A DNA stretch of 64,000 nt from Escherichia coli. GTDB lineage: Bacteria; Pseudomonadota; Gammaproteobacteria; Enterobacterales; Enterobacteriaceae. The DNA is taken from the NCBI RefSeq assembly GCF_017348835.2, contig NZ_CP071375.1. The stretch is one strand, 5' to 3'. Below are positions 15,280 to 34,762 of this stretch, one piece after another (position 1 is the stretch's first letter; every line of letters begins with the position of its first letter). The position numbers and the translations under genes were made by a program. Under the pieces are notes generated by a model, which saw only the letters and a program-made list of their open reading frames with translations, did not search any database and had not been told where the DNA came from.

Positions 15280-15399
15280 ATGCCTGGCAGTTCCCTACTC
15301 TCGCATGGGGAGACCCCACACTACCATCGGCGCTACGGCGTTTCACTTCTGAGTTCGGCATGGGGTCAGGTGGGACCACCGCGCTACTGCCGCCAGGCA
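15280..15399 (-). rRNA. rrfG: 5S ribosomal RNA
   Basis: 120-nt reverse-complement match to the E. coli 5S sequence (TGCCTGGCGGC...CTGCCAGGCAT). Confidence 0.95.
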
Positions 15400-15493
15400 A
15401 ATTCTGTCGTATTAACCCGCTTACCGCCGGTTAATCTAATCTGTATCAGGCTGAAAATCTTCTCTCAATCCGCCAAAACACCTTCGGCGTTGT

Positions 15494-18398
<2,905 letters not shown>

Positions 18399-18591
18399 TC
18401 ACAACCCGAAGATGTTTCTTGCGATCCATCATCTTGTTGCGAAAATTTGAGAGACTCACGAACAACTTTCGTTGTTCAGTGTTTCAATTTTCAGCTTGAT
18501 CCAGATTTTTAAAGAGCAAATATCTCAAACATCACCCGAAGATGAGTTTTGAGATATTAAGGCAGGTGACTTTCACTCACAAACCAGCAAG

Positions 18592-18667
18592 TGGCGTCCC
18601 CTAGGGGATTCGAACCCCTGTTACCGCCGTGAAAGGGCGGTGTCCTGGGCCTCTAGACGAAGGGGAC
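18592..18667 (-). tRNA. gltW: tRNA-Glu (anticodon UUC), 16S-23S spacer tRNA
   Basis: 76-nt reverse-complement match to GTCCCCTTCGTCTAGAGGCCCAGGACACCGCCCTTTCACGGCGGTAACAGGGGTTCGAATCCCCTAGGGGACGCCA. Confidence 0.95.
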
Positions 18668-18752
18668 GTATCAGTCTGCTTCGCAAGACGCCTTGCTTTT
18701 CACTTTCTATCAGACAATCTGTGTGAGCACTACAAAGAACGCTTCTTTAAGG

Positions 18753-20294
<1,542 letters not shown>

Positions 20295-20737: not shown

Positions 20738-23311
20738 TTACTGGACGGCGACAATCCGGTCTTCATTAACTTCCAGGCGAATCACTTTACCCGGAACCAA
20801 TTCACCAGACAGTATTTGCTGTGCCAGCGGGTTTTCGATCTGCTGCTGAATTGCACGTTTCAGAGGACGTGCACCATAGACCGGATCGTAACCGTTCTCG
20901 CTCAGCAGTTTCAGCGCCTCGTCAGAAATGTGGATTTCATAACCACGTTCTTCCAGACGTTTATACAGACGTTTCAATTGAATCTGCGCAATCGACGCAA
21001 TGTGCTGTTCACCCAGCGGATGGAAGACCACCACTTCATCGATACGGTTAATGAATTCCGGACGGAAGTTATGGCTAACCACACCGAGCACCAGCTCTTT
21101 CATGTGCGCATAATCCAGTTCACCGAAGCGTTCCTGAATCAGATCGGAACCGAGGTTAGAGGTCATAATGACAACCGTATTACGGAAGTCGACCGTTCTC
21201 CCCTGCCCGTCAGTCAGACGCCCATCATCCAGTACCTGCAACAGAATATTGAAGACATCCGGATGCGCTTTTTCCACTTCATCCAGCAGGATGACGGAAT
21301 ACGGACGACGACGCACCGCTTCGGTCAGGTAGCCACCTTCTTCATAACCGACATATCCCGGAGGCGCACCAACCAGACGAGACACCGAGTGTTTCTCCAT
21401 AAACTCGGACATATCGATACGGACCATCGCCTCGTCGCTATCAAACATAAAGTTCGCCAGCGCCTTACAAAGCTCTGTTTTCCCCACACCAGTTGGGCCG
21501 AGGAACAGGAATGAACCAATCGGGCGATTTGGATCCGCCAGCCCCGCACGGCTACGACGAATAGCGTTAGATACCGCATCAACCGCTTCGTTCTGACCAA
21601 TTACGCGATGGTGCAGTTCTTGCTCCATACGCAGCAGTTTTTCGCGCTCGCTTTCCATCATGCGAGAAACCGGAATCCCCGTCCAACGCGCCAGCACTTC
21701 AGCAATTTCAGCGTCGGTCACTTTATTACGCAACAGACGCATAGTTTTGCCTTCGAGCTGCGTTGCGGCTTCCAGTTGCTTTTCCAGTTCCGGGATTTTG
21801 CCGTATTGCAGTTCAGACATCCGCGCCAGGTCACCCACACGGCGAGCCTGTTCAATAGCGATTTTCGCCTGTTCCAGTTCCGCTTTAATGGTCTGCGTAC
21901 CAGAAAGCGATGCCTTCTCTGCTTTCCACTCTTCTTCTAACTCGGAGTACTGACGTTCTTTGTCGCTCAGTTCTTCGTTGAGCATATCCAGACGTTTTTT
22001 ACTGGCTTCATCAGACTCTTTCATTAACGCCTGTTGTTCCAGTTTGAGCTGGATGATACGGCGATCGAGTCGGTCGAGTTCTTCTGGTTTTGAGTCAATC
22101 TGCATACGAATGCTGGATGCTGCTTCATCGATCAGGTCGATGGCTTTATCCGGCAGCTGACGGTCAGCAATGTAGCGATGAGACAACGTCGCCGCTGCAA
22201 CAATTGCCGGGTCAGTAATTTGCACATGGTGGTGCAATTCGTAACGTTCTTTCAGGCCACGCAGAATCGCAATGGTATCTTCAACAGAAGGCTCGGCAAC
22301 AAACACTTTCTGGAAACGACGTTCCAGCGCAGCATCTTTTTCGATGTACTGGCGATATTCGTCAAGCGTCGTGGCACCTACGCAGTGCAATTCACCACGC
22401 GCCAGCGCCGGTTTCAGCATGTTTCCGGCGTCCATTGCGCCATCGGCTTTACCCGCGCCGACCATGGTATGTAATTCGTCGATAAACAGGATGACGTTGC
22501 CTTCCTGTTTGGCAAGGTCGTTAAGCACGCCTTTTAAACGTTCTTCAAACTCACCGCGATATTTCGCCCCAGCCACCAGCGCGCCCATATCCAGCGCCAG
22601 TACCCGGCGGCCTTTCAACCCTTCCGGCACTTCGCCGTTGATAATACGCTGCGCCAGACCTTCAACGATGGCAGTTTTACCGACGCCGGGTTCACCAATC
22701 AGTACCGGGTTATTTTTAGTACGACGTTGCAGCACCTGAATGGTACGGCGAATTTCTTCATCACGACCAATCACCGGATCGAGTTTGCCCTGTTCGGCTC
22801 GTTCGGTAAGGTCGATGGTATATTTTTTCAAAGCCTGACGTTGGTCTTCAGCACCTTGATCGTTCACGCTTTCACCTCCACGCATTTGTTCAATCGCTTG
22901 AGTAATGTTGGCGGTGGTCGCCCCTGCTGCTTTCAGGATGTCGGCCAGTGTGCCGCGAGACTCAAGTGCCGCCAGAACGAACAGTTCTGACGAGATAAAG
23001 TTATCACCACGTTTTTGCGCCAGCTTGTCGCAAAGATTAAGAACGCGCACCAGATCCTGTGATGGCTGGACATCACCACCAGTACCTTCAACCTGCGGTA
23101 AACGATTTAATGCCTGATTGATATCTGTGCGCAACTGGCCAGCATTTATGCCAGCGGATGTTAATAAAGGACTAACCGAACCCCCTTCCTGATTCAGCAG
23201 GGCGCTCATTAAATGAAGTGGTTCGATAAATTGGTTGTCGTGCCCGAGTGCAAGTGATTGGGCATCGGCAAGAGCAAGCTGGAATTTATTAGTAAGACGA
23301 TCCAGACGCAT
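20738..23311 (-). CDS. clpB: Hsp100 disaggregase chaperone ClpB
   Basis: ORF 20738..23323; start chosen at [10 protein letters not shown] (857 aa); two AAA+ modules with Walker A/B and a coiled-coil middle domain. E. coli ClpB is known to have a second internal GTG translation start producing a shorter isoform. Confidence 0.95.
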
Positions 23312-23344
23312 AACTCCTCCCATAACGGATCAAAGTTGCTACTG

Positions 23345-23382
23345 GAGATTAAATGAGGTCATCCCTCAATTATTCAAGGTTA
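23345..23382 (-). promoter_or_regulatory. Sigma-32 (heat-shock) promoter of clpB
   Basis: Minus strand reads CTTGAA - 14 nt - CCTCATTTA, fitting the sigma-32 consensus (CTTGAAA / CCCCATnT). Confidence 0.6.
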
Positions 23383-23440
23383 TTGACCAGATTAATGTGA
23401 AAAGAAAATCACGCGTACCGGATCGTCTTGATTCTTTAGG

Positions 23441-28120: not shown

Positions 28121-28176
28121 GTTGACAGCGTGAAAACAGTACGGGTACTGTACTAAAGTCACTTAAGGAAACAAAC

Positions 28177-28224
28177 ATGAAACACATACCGTTTTTCTTC
28201 GCATTCTTTTTTACCTTCCCCTGA
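28177..28224 (+). CDS. pheL: pheA operon leader peptide (Phe-rich, 15 aa)
   Basis: ATG at 28177 encoding [15 protein letters not shown] then stop; seven Phe codons. Confidence 0.85.
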
Positions 28225-28270
28225 ATGGGAGGCGTTTCGTCGTGTGAAACAGAATGCGAAGACGAACAAT

Positions 28271-28301
28271 AAGGCCTCCCAAATCGGGGGGCCTTTTTTA
28301 T
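28271..28301 (+). terminator. pheA attenuator terminator
   Basis: Hairpin aggcctcccaaatcggggggcct followed by tttttta, between pheL and pheA. Confidence 0.7.
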
Positions 28302-31937: not shown

Positions 31938-32303
31938 ATGATGAAAAAGTTTATCGCCCCCTTGTTGGCTTTACTGGTTAGCGGATGCCAGATTGATCCT
32001 TATACTCACGCGCCAACCTTGACCAGCACCGACTGGTATGATGTTGGTATGGAAGATGCGATATCGGGCAGCGCCATAAAAGATGACGATGCATTTAGCG
32101 ATTCACAGGCGGATCGCGGTCTATTCCTTAAAGGATATGCCGAAGGACAAAAGAAAACTTGCCAGACCGATTTTACTTATGCCCGAGGACTTTCCGGTAA
32201 AAGCTTTCCTGCCAGCTGCAACAATGTTGAAAATACAAGCCAACTGCATGAAGTATGGCAAAAAGGGGCTGATGAAAATGCCAGCACAATACGATTAAAT
32301 TAA
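31938..32303 (+). CDS. yfiL: Small lipoprotein YfiL
   Basis: ORF 31899..32303; start chosen at MMKKFIAPLLALLVSGC (lipobox); 121 aa. Confidence 0.75.
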   Translation: MMKKFIAPLLALLVSGCQIDPYTHAPTLTSTDWYDVGMEDAISGSAIKDDDAFSDSQADRGLFLKGYAEGQKKTCQTDFTYARGLSGKSFPASCNNVENTSQLHEVWQKGADENASTIRLN

Positions 32304-32452
32304 TTAAAACCCCACAAATAAATTAAACATAAGATTTTACTCATTATGTTTTATTTCTCACAATGATGACGATCGCATGAAAAAATGATATTTTAATGAG
32401 CATTCTGAAAAAATATCGATGCATTTCGAGCGAAGATGGTGGGGATCCCTGA

Positions 32453-32971
32453 ATGCGTTTTTCTCACCGACTGTTCTTACTTCTGATTCTCCTGCTGACG
32501 GGAGCACCAATACTCGCTCAGGAGCCTTCTGACGTTGCGAAAAACGTGCGTATGATGGTTTCCGGTATTGTCAGTTACACCCGCTGGCCTGCGCTATCAG
32601 GGCCACCAAAATTATGTATCTTTTCATCTTCACGTTTTAGTACCGCCCTACAAGAGAATGCCGCGACATCTTTGCCTTATCTGCCTGTCATCATTCACAC
32701 TCAACAAGAGGCGATGATTTCAGGCTGCAATGGTTTTTATTTTGGCAACGAGTCACCGACATTCCAGATGGAATTAACCGAACAATATCCGTCAAAGGCG
32801 TTATTATTAATTGCCGAACAAAATACCGAGTGCATTATTGGTAGCGCCTTTTGTCTGATCATCCACAATAATGACGTCAGATTTGCCGTAAACCTGGATG
32901 CCTTATCGCGTAGCGGTGTAAAGGTCAACCCGGATGTCTTAATGCTCGCACGGAAGAAAAATGATGGATAA
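32453..32971 (+). CDS. yfiR: Periplasmic repressor of the DgcN diguanylate cyclase
   Basis: 172-aa ORF with signal peptide; first gene of yfiRNB; overlaps the dgcN start by 11 bp. Confidence 0.85.
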
Positions 32972-34187
32972 CGATAATTCTCTTAATAAGCGCCCCACGT
33001 TTAAAAGAGCATTACGCAACATCAGTATGACCAGCATATTTATCACTATGATGCTGATCTGGTTGCTGCTTTCCGTGACCTCGGTGCTGACCCTGAAACA
33101 GTACGCGCAAAAAAACCTGGCACTGACAGCAGCAACAATGACTTACAGTCTGGAAGCAGCTGTCGTTTTTGCCGATGGCCCTGCAGCAACTGAAACACTG
33201 GCAGCGCTGGGCCAGCAAGGGCAATTTTCAACTGCAGAAGTACGTGATAAGCAGCAAAATATTCTGGCATCCTGGCATTACACCCGTAAGGATCCAGGCG
33301 ATACTTTCAGCAATTTCATAAGCCACTGGCTCTTCCCTGCCCCCATCATTCAGCCGATTCGTCACAATGGCGAAACCATTGGCGAAGTACGCTTAACCGC
33401 TCGCGACAGTTCAATCAGCCATTTTATCTGGTTTTCGCTCGCCGTACTGACCGGTTGTATTCTGCTGGCATCAGGAATCGCAATTACCCTCACCCGCCAT
33501 TTGCACAATGGCCTGGTGGAAGCACTGAAAAATATCACCGATGTCGTACATGATGTGCGTTCCAACCGCAATTTTTCCCGACGAGTTTCGGAAGAACGTA
33601 TCGCTGAGTTTCACCGATTCGCTCTCGACTTCAACAGTCTGCTGGATGAAATGGAAGAGTGGCAGCTTCGTTTACAGGCCAAAAATGCGCAGCTTCTACG
33701 TACCGCGCTACATGACCCATTAACCGGGCTGGCTAACCGCGCAGCGTTTCGTAGCGGCATCAACACGTTGATGAACAATTCCGATGCCCGAAAAACGTCG
33801 GCGTTACTATTTCTTGATGGCGATAATTTCAAATATATCAATGATACCTGGGGTCATGCGACGGGCGATAGAGTCTTGATTGAAATCGCAAAACGGTTAG
33901 CTGAATTTGGCGGGCTGCGACATAAAGCATACCGCCTGGGCGGCGATGAATTCGCTATGGTGCTCTATGATGTACAGTCGGAATCTGAAGTGCAGCAGAT
34001 ATGCTCAGCACTGACACAAATCTTTAATCTCCCGTTTGATCTTCATAATGGCCATCAGACCACCATGACATTAAGCATTGGTTACGCGATGACCATTGAG
34101 CACGCCTCTGCGGAAAAATTACAAGAGCTTGCCGATCACAATATGTATCAGGCCAAACACCAGCGTGCCGAAAAGCTGGTGAGATAA
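32961..34187 (+). CDS. dgcN: Membrane-bound diguanylate cyclase (GGDEF domain)
   Basis: 408-aa ORF with two TM segments, a HAMP-like linker and a GGDEF domain (RLGGDEF motif). Confidence 0.88.
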
Positions 34188-34202
34188 CAAGGATATATCG
34201 AT

Positions 34203-34685
34203 ATGATAAAGCACCTGGTAGCACCCCTGATTTTCACCTCACTAATACTGACTGGCTGCCAGTCCCCTCAGGGAAAGTTTACTCCTGAGCAAGTCGCCGC
34301 TATGCAATCTTATGGATTTACTGAATCCGCCGGCGATTGGTCGCTGGGCTTATCAGATGCCATTCTGTTCGCAAAAAATGACTACAAATTGCTCCCGGAA
34401 AGCCAGCAACAGATCCAAACCATGGCAGCCAAATTGGCCTCGACAGGGCTAACACATGCCCGTATGGATGGACACACCGATAACTATGGTGAAGACAGTT
34501 ACAACGAAGGCTTATCATTGAAACGGGCGAATGTCGTGGCCGATGCATGGGCTATGGGTGGACAAATTCCACGCAGCAATCTCACCACACAGGGTTTAGG
34601 AAAAAAATATCCCATAGCCAGTAACAAGACCGCCCAGGGCCGCGCCGAGAACCGCCGCGTCGCAGTGGTGATTACTACCCCTTAA
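34203..34685 (+). CDS. yfiB: OmpA-family outer-membrane lipoprotein YfiB
   Basis: 160-aa ORF with lipobox (LILTGC) and C-terminal OmpA-like peptidoglycan-binding domain. Confidence 0.88.
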   Translation: MIKHLVAPLIFTSLILTGCQSPQGKFTPEQVAAMQSYGFTESAGDWSLGLSDAILFAKNDYKLLPESQQQIQTMAAKLASTGLTHARMDGHTDNYGEDSYNEGLSLKRANVVADAWAMGGQIPRSNLTTQGLGKKYPIASNKTAQGRAENRRVAVVITTP

Positions 34686-34700
34686 AACACGAGCAAACAG

Positions 34701-34735
34701 ATAAAAAAAAGGGCCAGCCAATTGGCCAGCCCTTC
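34701..34735 (-). terminator. rplS operon intrinsic terminator
   Basis: On the minus-strand RNA, gggcuggcc/ggcuggccc pair with G-U wobbles and are followed by a U8 tract. Confidence 0.5.
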
Positions 34736-34762
34736 TTAACAGGATGTCGCTTAAGCGAAATC

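Follow-up and report, generated by a model that had tools for sequence, protein, structure and literature searches.

Is the yfiR-dgcN-yfiB locus found in a 64,000-nucleotide stretch of Escherichia coli DNA (hereafter the window) an intact c-di-GMP signaling module, and how is the expression of its three tightly packed genes tied together? A preliminary description had taken the locus for the known tripartite system of a periplasmic repressor, a diguanylate cyclase and an OmpA-like lipoprotein, and equivalog models, Pfam domains and Pseudomonas aeruginosa structures all agree with that assignment. We are highly confident that the region is the wild-type chromosomal E. coli yfiR-dgcN-yfiB operon, a stress-gated c-di-GMP switch with the mechanism known from K-12 and P. 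aeruginosa.

Organization and conservation of the locus

The three genes are uninterrupted, ATG-started open reading frames (ORFs) on the plus strand. According to the ORF listing, yfiR occupies 32453-32971 (172 amino acids), dgcN (also named yfiN) 32961-34187 (408 amino acids from the annotated ATG) and yfiB 34203-34685 (160 amino acids). The yfiR stop codon, TAA at 32969-32971, lies within dgcN when the latter is read from ATG 32961, and the dgcN stop at 34187 is separated from the yfiB ATG at 34203 by 15 nt. The ORF coordinates thus reproduce exactly the 11-bp overlap, for the annotated dgcN start, and the 15-bp spacing that had been reported for the two junctions. Gene order, shared strand and operon-like spacing are those of a YfiBNR/YfiRNB module. 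Antisense and out-of-frame ORFs within the region all encode 76 amino acids or fewer, are unsupported and were treated as spurious. No RNA family was detected in or beside the operon by Rfam at the gathering threshold across the whole window, or at E<=1 between 31800 and 34800, apart from a nematode sRNA match in the latter interval that we attribute to chance (E=0.72).

Strain PE164, K-12 MG1655 and two divergent lineages all have these three coding sequences annotated in RefSeq with unchanged boundaries, and PE164 is 100% identical to the window over 32300-34760. The gene context, aroF-yfiL-yfiR-dgcN-yfiB-rplS-trmD-rimM, is identical to that of K-12, and the window here is ordinary E. coli chromosome of the aroF-rplS region. 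A search of 5426 complete E. coli genomes recovered it in 5425 of them, always on the chromosome, which excludes a chance pattern; the locus is real and conserved. All three genes are under purifying selection, with pairwise pN/pS values of 0.05-0.24 against lineages that are approximately 97% identical.

The closest characterized relative is K-12 MG1655, in which yfiR (b2603), dgcN/yfiN (b2604) and yfiB (b2605) share the order, relative coordinates, overlap, spacer and junctions of the window. No amino acid of YfiR or DgcN departs from its K-12 counterpart (100% identity), and the sole change in YfiB is V10I, within its signal peptide. Across the three genes there are 13 nucleotide differences, 12 of them synonymous (nine in dgcN) and the remaining one accounting for V10I. 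Three further substitutions fall in the yfiL-yfiR intergenic region and one lies downstream of yfiB, where an A-run also measures 8 nt here compared with 6 in K-12. The operon is therefore already known and ordinary, its proteins being essentially those of K-12, and the preliminary description was right to call it known biology. As a textbook E. coli core operon, it carries little weight as a discovery. What is gained is modest: the catalytic GGDEF residues are unaltered and the I-site is missing, as published, and comparison across genera places the conserved dgcN start a single codon further downstream than annotated, giving an 8-nt overlap with yfiR.

The yfiR/dgcN junction

The dgcN gene begins with two consecutive ATG codons (ATGATG), the first at 32961 and the second at 32964, which would give proteins of 408 and 407 amino acids and overlaps with yfiR of 11 and 8 nt, respectively. 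Citrobacter, Salmonella, Enterobacter and Trabulsiella have a single ATG here, the one corresponding to 32964, within a conserved 8-nt ATGNATAA overlap, and their counterpart of ATG 32961 is AGC. The 3' end of yfiR contains GGAAG (32952..32956, plus strand; anti-SD duplex of -3.5 kcal/mol), a weak Shine-Dalgarno-like element that precedes dgcN by 4-5 nt when counted to ATG 32961 and by 7-8 nt when counted to ATG 32964. Given that only ATG 32964 is conserved outside Escherichia and that it has the better spacing from GGAAG, the real overlap may be 8 nt rather than 11.

Alternatively, dgcN could be translated from the annotated first ATG, with the 11-nt overlap, the additional Met codon representing an Escherichia-specific start. 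RefSeq places dgcN starts equivalent to 32961 in K-12, PE164, ST131 and LS45, the ATGATG is invariant among the divergent E. coli alleles checked, and one homolog with 88% identity (P0011) also starts with MM. However, the longest ORF is the default choice of annotation pipelines, a second homolog that is 90% identical (P0007) starts with MDNDNS, and both the AGC codon with a lone second ATG in the four other genera and the short distance from GGAAG to 32961 argue for the downstream start. We consider initiation at the first ATG a real possibility, if on balance a doubtful one. Because the two starts differ by a single Met, the functional consequence is probably nil.

It is conceivable, and in our view quite improbable, that the extra in-frame ATG of Escherichia (ATGATG) alters re-initiation on dgcN by ribosomes terminating on yfiR and so shifts the YfiR:DgcN ratio relative to genera with a single ATG. 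If this were true, the set-point of the switch would differ from that in Salmonella, Citrobacter and Enterobacter, which have one ATG and the 8-nt overlap. The evidence at hand does not require such an effect; the two DgcN products differ only by one N-terminal Met.

Whichever start is used, an overlap of this kind raises the prospect that dgcN translation is coupled to that of yfiR. Coupling is plausible, judging from the overlap and its conservation: each of the five genera compared has a stop/start overlap, and divergent E. coli lineages show no variation in the junction sequence. No experimental report on yfiR/dgcN coupling was found in the literature consulted, PMC2837407 included. Folded as RNA, the junction (32900-33020) does not exceed shuffled sequences in stability (z=+0.40), so nothing suggests a structure that occludes the dgcN start.

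The competing explanation is that the three genes are co-transcribed and that each initiates translation independently, the overlap being mere genome compaction. Short overlaps are frequent in bacterial operons irrespective of coupling, free ribosomes should be able to reach the dgcN start since the junction RNA shows no unusual structure, and Shine-Dalgarno-like elements precede both downstream genes, namely GGAAG before dgcN and a good AAGGA before yfiB. The latter lies in the 15-nt spacer (34189..34193, plus strand), 8 nt from the start codon, forms an anti-SD duplex of -5.2 kcal/mol, and is kept in Citrobacter, Enterobacter and Trabulsiella, in which the spacers measure 12-17 nt. Against independent initiation of dgcN stand the weakness of its Shine-Dalgarno element and the retention of the ATGNATAA overlap across five genera while neighboring codons vary; in addition, a repressor and an enzyme that together set an on/off balance would be expected to gain from fixed co-translation. 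We regard wholly independent initiation as somewhat unlikely. Judging from the sequence, dgcN translation probably depends on yfiR termination via the overlap, most likely the 8-nt ATGGATAA with its start at 32964, and yfiB would initiate from its own AAGGA element, 15 nt after dgcN.

Protein features of YfiR, YfiB and DgcN

Alignment to characterized YfiBNR/TpbB systems, which had been proposed as a check on the assignment, returned P. aeruginosa YfiR, TpbB/YfiN and YfiB as the best solved-structure matches. YfiR matches the Pfam family DUF4154 (PF13689, YfiR/HmsC-like; E=4.9e-31), the NCBIfam equivalog sequest_YfiR (168 bits; cut-off 85), and P. aeruginosa YfiR structures (E=1e-16). A predicted N-terminal signal sequence spans residues ~1-22, including a hydrophobic 19-mer at residues 3-21, and YfiR is the periplasmic repressor of DgcN. 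Its conserved cysteines C55, C92, C127 and C134 align with C71, C110, C145 and C152 of the P. aeruginosa protein, and these two pairs may form the redox-sensitive disulfides seen in known systems.

YfiB contains an OmpA domain (Pfam; residues 55-151, E=1.2e-17), scores 348.6 bits against the NCBIfam model PRK09967 (cut-off 155) and 231.4 bits against the OMP_LP_YfiB equivalog (cut-off 128), and matches P. aeruginosa YfiB structures at E=1e-31. A lipobox, LTGC, is located at residues 16-19 (nt 34248-34259, plus strand), with C19 as the lipidation cysteine. Residues C19, F39, W46, N59, D93, G96 and R108 align with C26, F48, W55, N68, D102, G105 and R117 of P. aeruginosa YfiB, and the residues for lipidation, peptidoglycan binding and N-terminal activation are conserved between the two. 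YfiB is an outer-membrane OmpA/Pal-like lipoprotein with a peptidoglycan-binding domain.

DgcN has the architecture of YfiN: a first hydrophobic segment (TM1, ~26-44), a periplasmic CHASE8/PAS-like domain (45-146; Pfam CHASE8, E=1.3e-33), a second hydrophobic segment (TM2, ~160-178), a linker (~179-245) and a GGDEF domain (Pfam, residues 249-403, E=1.5e-43). It scores 503.9 bits against the NCBIfam DgcN/YfiN equivalog (cut-off 325), and its GGDEF domain aligns end to end with the TpbB structure 7a7e (E=5.5e-29). The protein is an inner-membrane diguanylate cyclase. In the literature the linker is called HAMP (PMC4992967); however, Pfam HAMP gave no match to residues 160-256 even at E<=10, and a sub-threshold Med29 match in the same interval was set aside as chance. 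Residues 169-236 give weak NCBIfam matches to a model for the N-terminus of YfiR-associated histidine kinases (E=8e-23) and to the equivalent region of BaeS (E=5.8e-4).

The GGDEF catalytic motif is intact at residues 327-331 (33939..33953, plus strand; codons GGC GGC GAT GAA TTC), and neither its loss nor disruption of any of the three genes, either of which would have spoken against the assignment, was found. The preliminary description had called for inspection of both the active site and the I-site: the catalytic motif is present, but the RxxD of the primary inhibition site (Ip), an optional feature of the family located five residues upstream of GGDEF, is not. No RxxD occurs in DgcN residues 241-408, and the Ip position (residues 318-321; 33912..33923, plus strand) reads GLRH. 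The same GLRH has been reported for E. coli YfiN as a functionally important state, and more than 90% of YfiN homologs are without I-sites (PMC10127611), which supports membership of this protein in the enterobacterial DgcN group. Four relatives likewise have other residues at this position (GNRH, GSRY, DKHH and GKRH). A secondary inhibition site is also reported to be absent in E. coli YfiN (PMC10127611); the residue N280 named in that paper could not be placed here, as residue 280 is Ser in the 408-amino acid numbering and Asn occurs closest to it at 272, 273 and 289. With GLRH instead of RxxD, DgcN is free of product feedback inhibition.

A module that has decayed or lost catalysis, with a degenerate GGDEF protein acting as scaffold or receptor only, is next to inconceivable. 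In its favor are the undetected HAMP and the missing RxxD, which a naive reader could mistake for degeneration. Against it, the GGDEF motif is intact, the DxLT, DxD/FK and NDxxGH regions align with those of the active TpbB domain, selection on the locus is strongly purifying, GLRH is wild-type in E. coli and the lack of I-sites the norm among YfiN homologs, and the protein matches K-12 YfiN residue for residue, an enzyme that has been described as the most robust E. coli cyclase and that depends on GGDEF for its activity (PMC10127611).

Related systems and proposed mechanism

The P. aeruginosa YfiBNR system (PA1121-PA1119, in which YfiN is TpbB) has the same three-protein architecture with yfiR first (PMC2837407). 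Identity over aligned columns is ~32% for YfiR and ~40% for YfiB. P. aeruginosa YfiN keeps an RxxD primary I-site (RESD), whereas E. coli has GLRH. Several interface residues also differ in E. coli, namely E163 (A145), I169 (L151) and Q187 (K169) of YfiR and L43 (M34) and F57 (L48) of YfiB. Work on the E. coli and Salmonella proteins, by comparison, has described roles in cell division and GTP depletion. In Salmonella enterica, yfiR-yfiN occupies the same position between aroF and rplS with an 8-nt yfiR/dgcN overlap, and DgcN is 75% identical and also without RxxD; there is no yfiB, rplS following directly after dgcN, as likewise stated in PMC4992967. The HmsCDE proteins of Yersinia pestis are described as a homologous redox-responsive repressor/cyclase/lipoprotein tripartite system, with a periplasmic repressor (PMC5550408), and Yersinia YfiN homologs are reported to keep the primary I-site (PMC10127611).

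By analogy with K-12 and P. aeruginosa, YfiR would be exported to the periplasm, fold with two disulfide bonds and bind the periplasmic CHASE8/PAS-like domain of inner-membrane DgcN, holding the cyclase off. YfiR would misfold under reducing conditions or when DsbA is lost, and released DgcN would convert GTP to c-di-GMP at the GGDEF site, which in turn would inhibit motility and promote cellulose and biofilm formation. Since DgcN is without inhibition sites, synthesis is not expected to be self-limiting and could deplete GTP and arrest growth. Under added envelope stress, E. coli DgcN would relocate to midcell, bind FtsZ and ZipA, and block division. These steps draw on work on the P. aeruginosa mechanism (PMC2837407; PMC3375315), on YfiBNR structures (PMC4887326), on E. 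coli YfiR/YfiN with DsbA/DTT and FtsZ/ZipA (PMC4992967), and on absent I-sites and GTP depletion (PMC10127611). Repression of YfiN by YfiR and its relief have been shown for the identical K-12 proteins (PMC4992967; PMC10127611) and for the P. aeruginosa homologs (PMC2837407; PMC3375315). In Pseudomonas, peptidoglycan-bound outer-membrane YfiB can also draw YfiR off; as an E. coli yfiB knockout did not abolish relocation of YfiN under envelope stress (PMC4992967), a sequestering role for YfiB here is an extrapolation from Pseudomonas.

Putative flanking regulatory sequences

A weak promoter ahead of yfiR probably drives all three genes as one transcript. The 149-nt yfiL-yfiR intergenic region (32304..32452, plus strand) is the presumed yfi promoter and 5' UTR, and a Shine-Dalgarno-like GGGGA element lies 7 nt before the yfiR ATG (anti-SD duplex of -5.5 kcal/mol). 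A promoter scan detected no plus-strand sigma-70 consensus match of at least 9/12 in this intergenic region. The two plus-strand matches, at 32529 and 34179, are intragenic and were rejected, the scan yielding seven matches compared with 5.8 expected in shuffled sequences. The native yfi promoter is reported to be weak (PMC4992967; PMC10127611), and the window sequence offers no new handle on transcriptional induction of the operon.

At the other end of the operon, a terminator scan identified a GC-rich hairpin (34706..34737) in the gap where yfiB and rplS converge. Read on the minus strand, it consists of a 14-pair stem followed by the T-run TTTTTTTT, and is likely to be the terminator of the rplS operon. 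The plus-strand RNA also folds (-19.9 kcal/mol, z=-2.74); with its tail, CTTCTTAA, it would terminate yfi transcripts weakly at most.

Organization and identity of the yfi locus

Three plus-strand genes make up the locus, each an uninterrupted ATG-started open reading frame in both the ORF listing and the raw sequence: yfiR (32453-32971, 172 aa), dgcN (32961-34187, 408 aa) and yfiB (34203-34685, 160 aa). The yfiR stop codon (TAA, 32969-32971) ends 11 nt past the annotated dgcN start, and 15 nt separate the dgcN stop from the yfiB start, exactly as the preliminary description had it. Its assignment of the genes to the yfiR-dgcN-yfiB c-di-GMP module is borne out by Pfam, NCBIfam, solved structures and RefSeq names, which all agree. 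YfiR matches the Pfam DUF4154 "YfiR/HmsC-like" family (E=4.9e-31), its NCBIfam model (168 bits against a cut-off of 85) and the P. aeruginosa YfiR structure (E=1e-16). DgcN contains CHASE8 (45-146, E=1.3e-33) and GGDEF (249-403, E=1.5e-43) domains, scores 503.9 bits against an NCBIfam cut-off of 325, and matches the TpbB/YfiN catalytic domain structure (E=5.5e-29). YfiB carries an OmpA domain (55-151, E=1.2e-17), exceeds two NCBIfam cut-offs (231.4 against 128 and 348.6 against 155) and matches P. aeruginosa YfiB (E=1e-31). The locus is the already known module in a wild-type, intact state, and only two refinements arise: DgcN has no I-site, which is the expected state in E. coli, and the conserved yfiR/dgcN overlap is 8 nt by way of a second ATG.

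Simple sequence analysis places a hydrophobic signal segment at the YfiR N-terminus, hydrophobic segments on either side of CHASE8 in DgcN (26-44 and 160-178), and an LTGC lipobox with Cys19 in YfiB. The Pfam HAMP model gives no match to the cytoplasmic linker of DgcN, which is named HAMP in the literature. Reading residue correspondences off HMMER alignments, we found that YfiR C55, C92, C127 and C134 correspond to the P. aeruginosa disulfide cysteines C71, C110, C145 and C152, and that YfiB C19 corresponds to the lipidated C26, F39/W46 to the activation-segment F48/W55, and N59, D93, G96 and R108 to the peptidoglycan-binding N68, D102, G105 and R117 (for the roles of these P. aeruginosa residues, see PMC3375315, PMC4887326). 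Several interface residues differ from P. aeruginosa, in YfiR (E163 to A145, I169 to L151, Q187 to K169) and in YfiB (L43 to M34, F57 to L48).

Conservation among E. coli genomes

A megablast search of all complete E. coli genomes (n=5426) with 32300-34760 matched all but one (5425), always on the chromosome and with every best match at least 95% identical. At least 80% of the query was covered at one place in 5368 genomes; no single place reached 80% in 57 of the 5425. Over this interval, two isolates from pigs (PE164 and F2_81) match at 100% identity. The three CDS have identical boundaries and names in the RefSeq annotations of PE164, K-12 MG1655, an ST131 strain and LS45, all sharing pheA-tyrA-aroF-yfiL upstream and convergent rplS-trmD-rimM-rpsP-ffh downstream. 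Relative to K-12, YfiR and DgcN are identical in amino acids, with one and nine synonymous differences, respectively, and YfiB has one conservative change in its signal peptide (V10I). Against two lineages of ~97% identity, pN/pS in the three genes is 0.05-0.24.

Rare E. coli have the locus broken by IS4 or IS1 (H46, NZ_CP123335.1; H52, NZ_CM129852.1), an insertion absent from the window. Public collections also hold single-copy E. coli variants: two proteins joining YfiR (DUF4154) and DgcN domains (P0004, 542 aa; P0005, 525 aa, in which a deletion fuses YfiR at about residue 143 to DgcN TM1), a DgcN-YfiB fusion (P0021, 512 aa) and a DgcN whose GGDEF domain contains a 31-aa internal duplication (P0001). 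Such variants may be natural alleles in which regulation has been lost or gained, or they may reflect assembly errors. Three further DgcN homologs (P0008, P0013, P0015), from short metagenome contigs of 2-6 kb, are identical to E. coli DgcN over their N-terminal ~235-290 residues and far more divergent in GGDEF, and could have arisen by allelic recombination or by chimeric assembly.

An intact GGDEF motif and no I-site

Of the two DgcN checks suggested previously, that of the GGDEF motif found it intact (residues 327-331, nt 33939-33953). For the primary I-site, the position was located five residues upstream, but it reads GLRH (318-321) rather than RxxD, and the catalytic domain contains no RxxD at any other position. 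We rejected GLRH as a lesion because it equals the published wild-type state: E. coli YfiN (DgcN) lacks both primary and secondary I-sites (Hwang and Harshey, PMC10127611). I-sites are missing from >90% of YfiN homologs, and their absence permits run-away c-di-GMP synthesis, with consequent GTP depletion and growth arrest on gluconeogenic carbon sources (PMC10127611). RxxD is also absent from four fetched relatives (GNRH, GSRY, DKHH, GKRH), whereas P. aeruginosa TpbB retains RESD in the alignment. The secondary I-site was restored by mutating "N280" (PMC10127611); in the 408-aa, K-12-identical DgcN residue 280 is Ser, with Asn nearby at 272, 273 and 289, which differs from that numbering.

The yfiR/dgcN junction and translation initiation

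In E. coli, the junction reads ...GGAAGAAAA ATG ATG GAT AA, such that dgcN opens with tandem in-frame ATG codons (32961-32966), and it is invariant among divergent E. coli lineages. We compared it with Citrobacter, Salmonella enterica, Enterobacter and Trabulsiella loci (DgcN identity 67-78%), where it reads ...AAAAGC ATG GAT AA or ...AAAAGC ATG AAT AA and the called stop and start overlap by 8 nt in all four. Since AGC aligns with 32961 in these genera, the conserved start is the second ATG, at 32964, in the ATGNATAA overlap. Therefore, the annotated 408-aa dgcN start may be one codon too long, and the functional overlap may span 8 nt instead of 11 nt. Among DgcN homologs, one 90% identical starts MDNDNS (P0007) and one 88% identical starts MM (P0011). 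The sole SD-like element for dgcN is a weak GGAAG (32952-32956, -3.5 kcal/mol), 5 nt from 32961 and 8 nt from 32964. Junction RNA structure is no stronger than in shuffled controls (z=+0.40). Judged from sequence, the conserved stop/start overlap is consistent with translational coupling of dgcN to yfiR; we found no experimental test of this coupling in the cited Yfi studies.

A good SD of its own precedes the yfiB ATG by 9 nt (AAGGA, duplex -5.2 kcal/mol) and is kept in yfiB-bearing relatives, with spacers of 12-17 nt. Salmonella lacks yfiB altogether, in agreement with PMC4992967. Within the 149 nt between yfiL and yfiR there is neither a plus-strand sigma-70 consensus match nor an Rfam match, in keeping with the very low native yfi expression reported, for which transcription-inducing signals are not known (PMC4992967, PMC10127611). 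No gene is called in the aroF-yfiR gap, the place of yfiL, in the Citrobacter, Salmonella and Trabulsiella loci.

The spacer separating yfiB from the convergent rplS contains a GC-rich hairpin (34706-34737), followed by a T-run on the minus strand and a T-poor tail on the plus strand; on the minus strand it serves as the rplS-operon terminator. Relative to K-12, this spacer carries a single substitution, with G in place of C at 34691, and the A-run forming the minus-strand T-tail (34703-34710) is 8 long rather than 6. PepSY_TM and DUF2946 genes lie between yfiB and rplS in Citrobacter (L003, 4221-6054) and Enterobacter (L005, 4222-6035), but not in E. coli or Trabulsiella.

Proposed mechanism

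The three genes would be co-transcribed, with dgcN translation probably coupled to that of yfiR and yfiB initiation predicted to be independent and SD-driven. The subsequent steps come from literature on identical or homologous proteins and not from this analysis (PMC2837407, PMC3375315, PMC4887326, PMC4992967, PMC10127611). YfiR binds the YfiN periplasmic domain and represses it, and is inactivated by DTT or loss of DsbA (PMC4992967). In P. aeruginosa, outer-membrane-anchored, peptidoglycan-bound YfiB sequesters YfiR. Active YfiN raises c-di-GMP, inhibiting motility and promoting cellulose and biofilm. When envelope stress is added, the E. coli protein moves to midcell via FtsZ and ZipA and arrests division; this relocation still occurs in an E. 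coli yfiB knockout (PMC4992967).

Other features of the window

A complete minus-strand rRNA operon (5S, 23S, tRNA-Glu spacer, 16S; 15282-20294) and the RyfD sRNA and Phe leader upstream of pheA (23292-23430, 28176-28301) are ordinary E. coli features. ssrA (tmRNA, tag ANDENYALAA; 46061-46423) is directly followed by ypjA/ehaD (46584-51745 region), beyond which the PE164 annotation places a small ATPase ORF, together with a fragment of a recombinase gene (~51578-51745); no intact integrated element is seen at ssrA in this strain. The minus-strand tRNA at 54310-54385 is tRNA-Met with anticodon CAT according to ARAGORN and tRNA-Ile in RefSeq, and presumably represents the minor isoleucine tRNA modified with lysidine. 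glaH (csiD, 57533-58510) is uninterrupted in the window and annotated as frameshifted in PE164, the two sequences being otherwise identical over 46000-64000 (18002 versus 18001 nt); therefore, either the window is not PE164 itself or PE164 carries a 1-nt indel, from sequencing or real.
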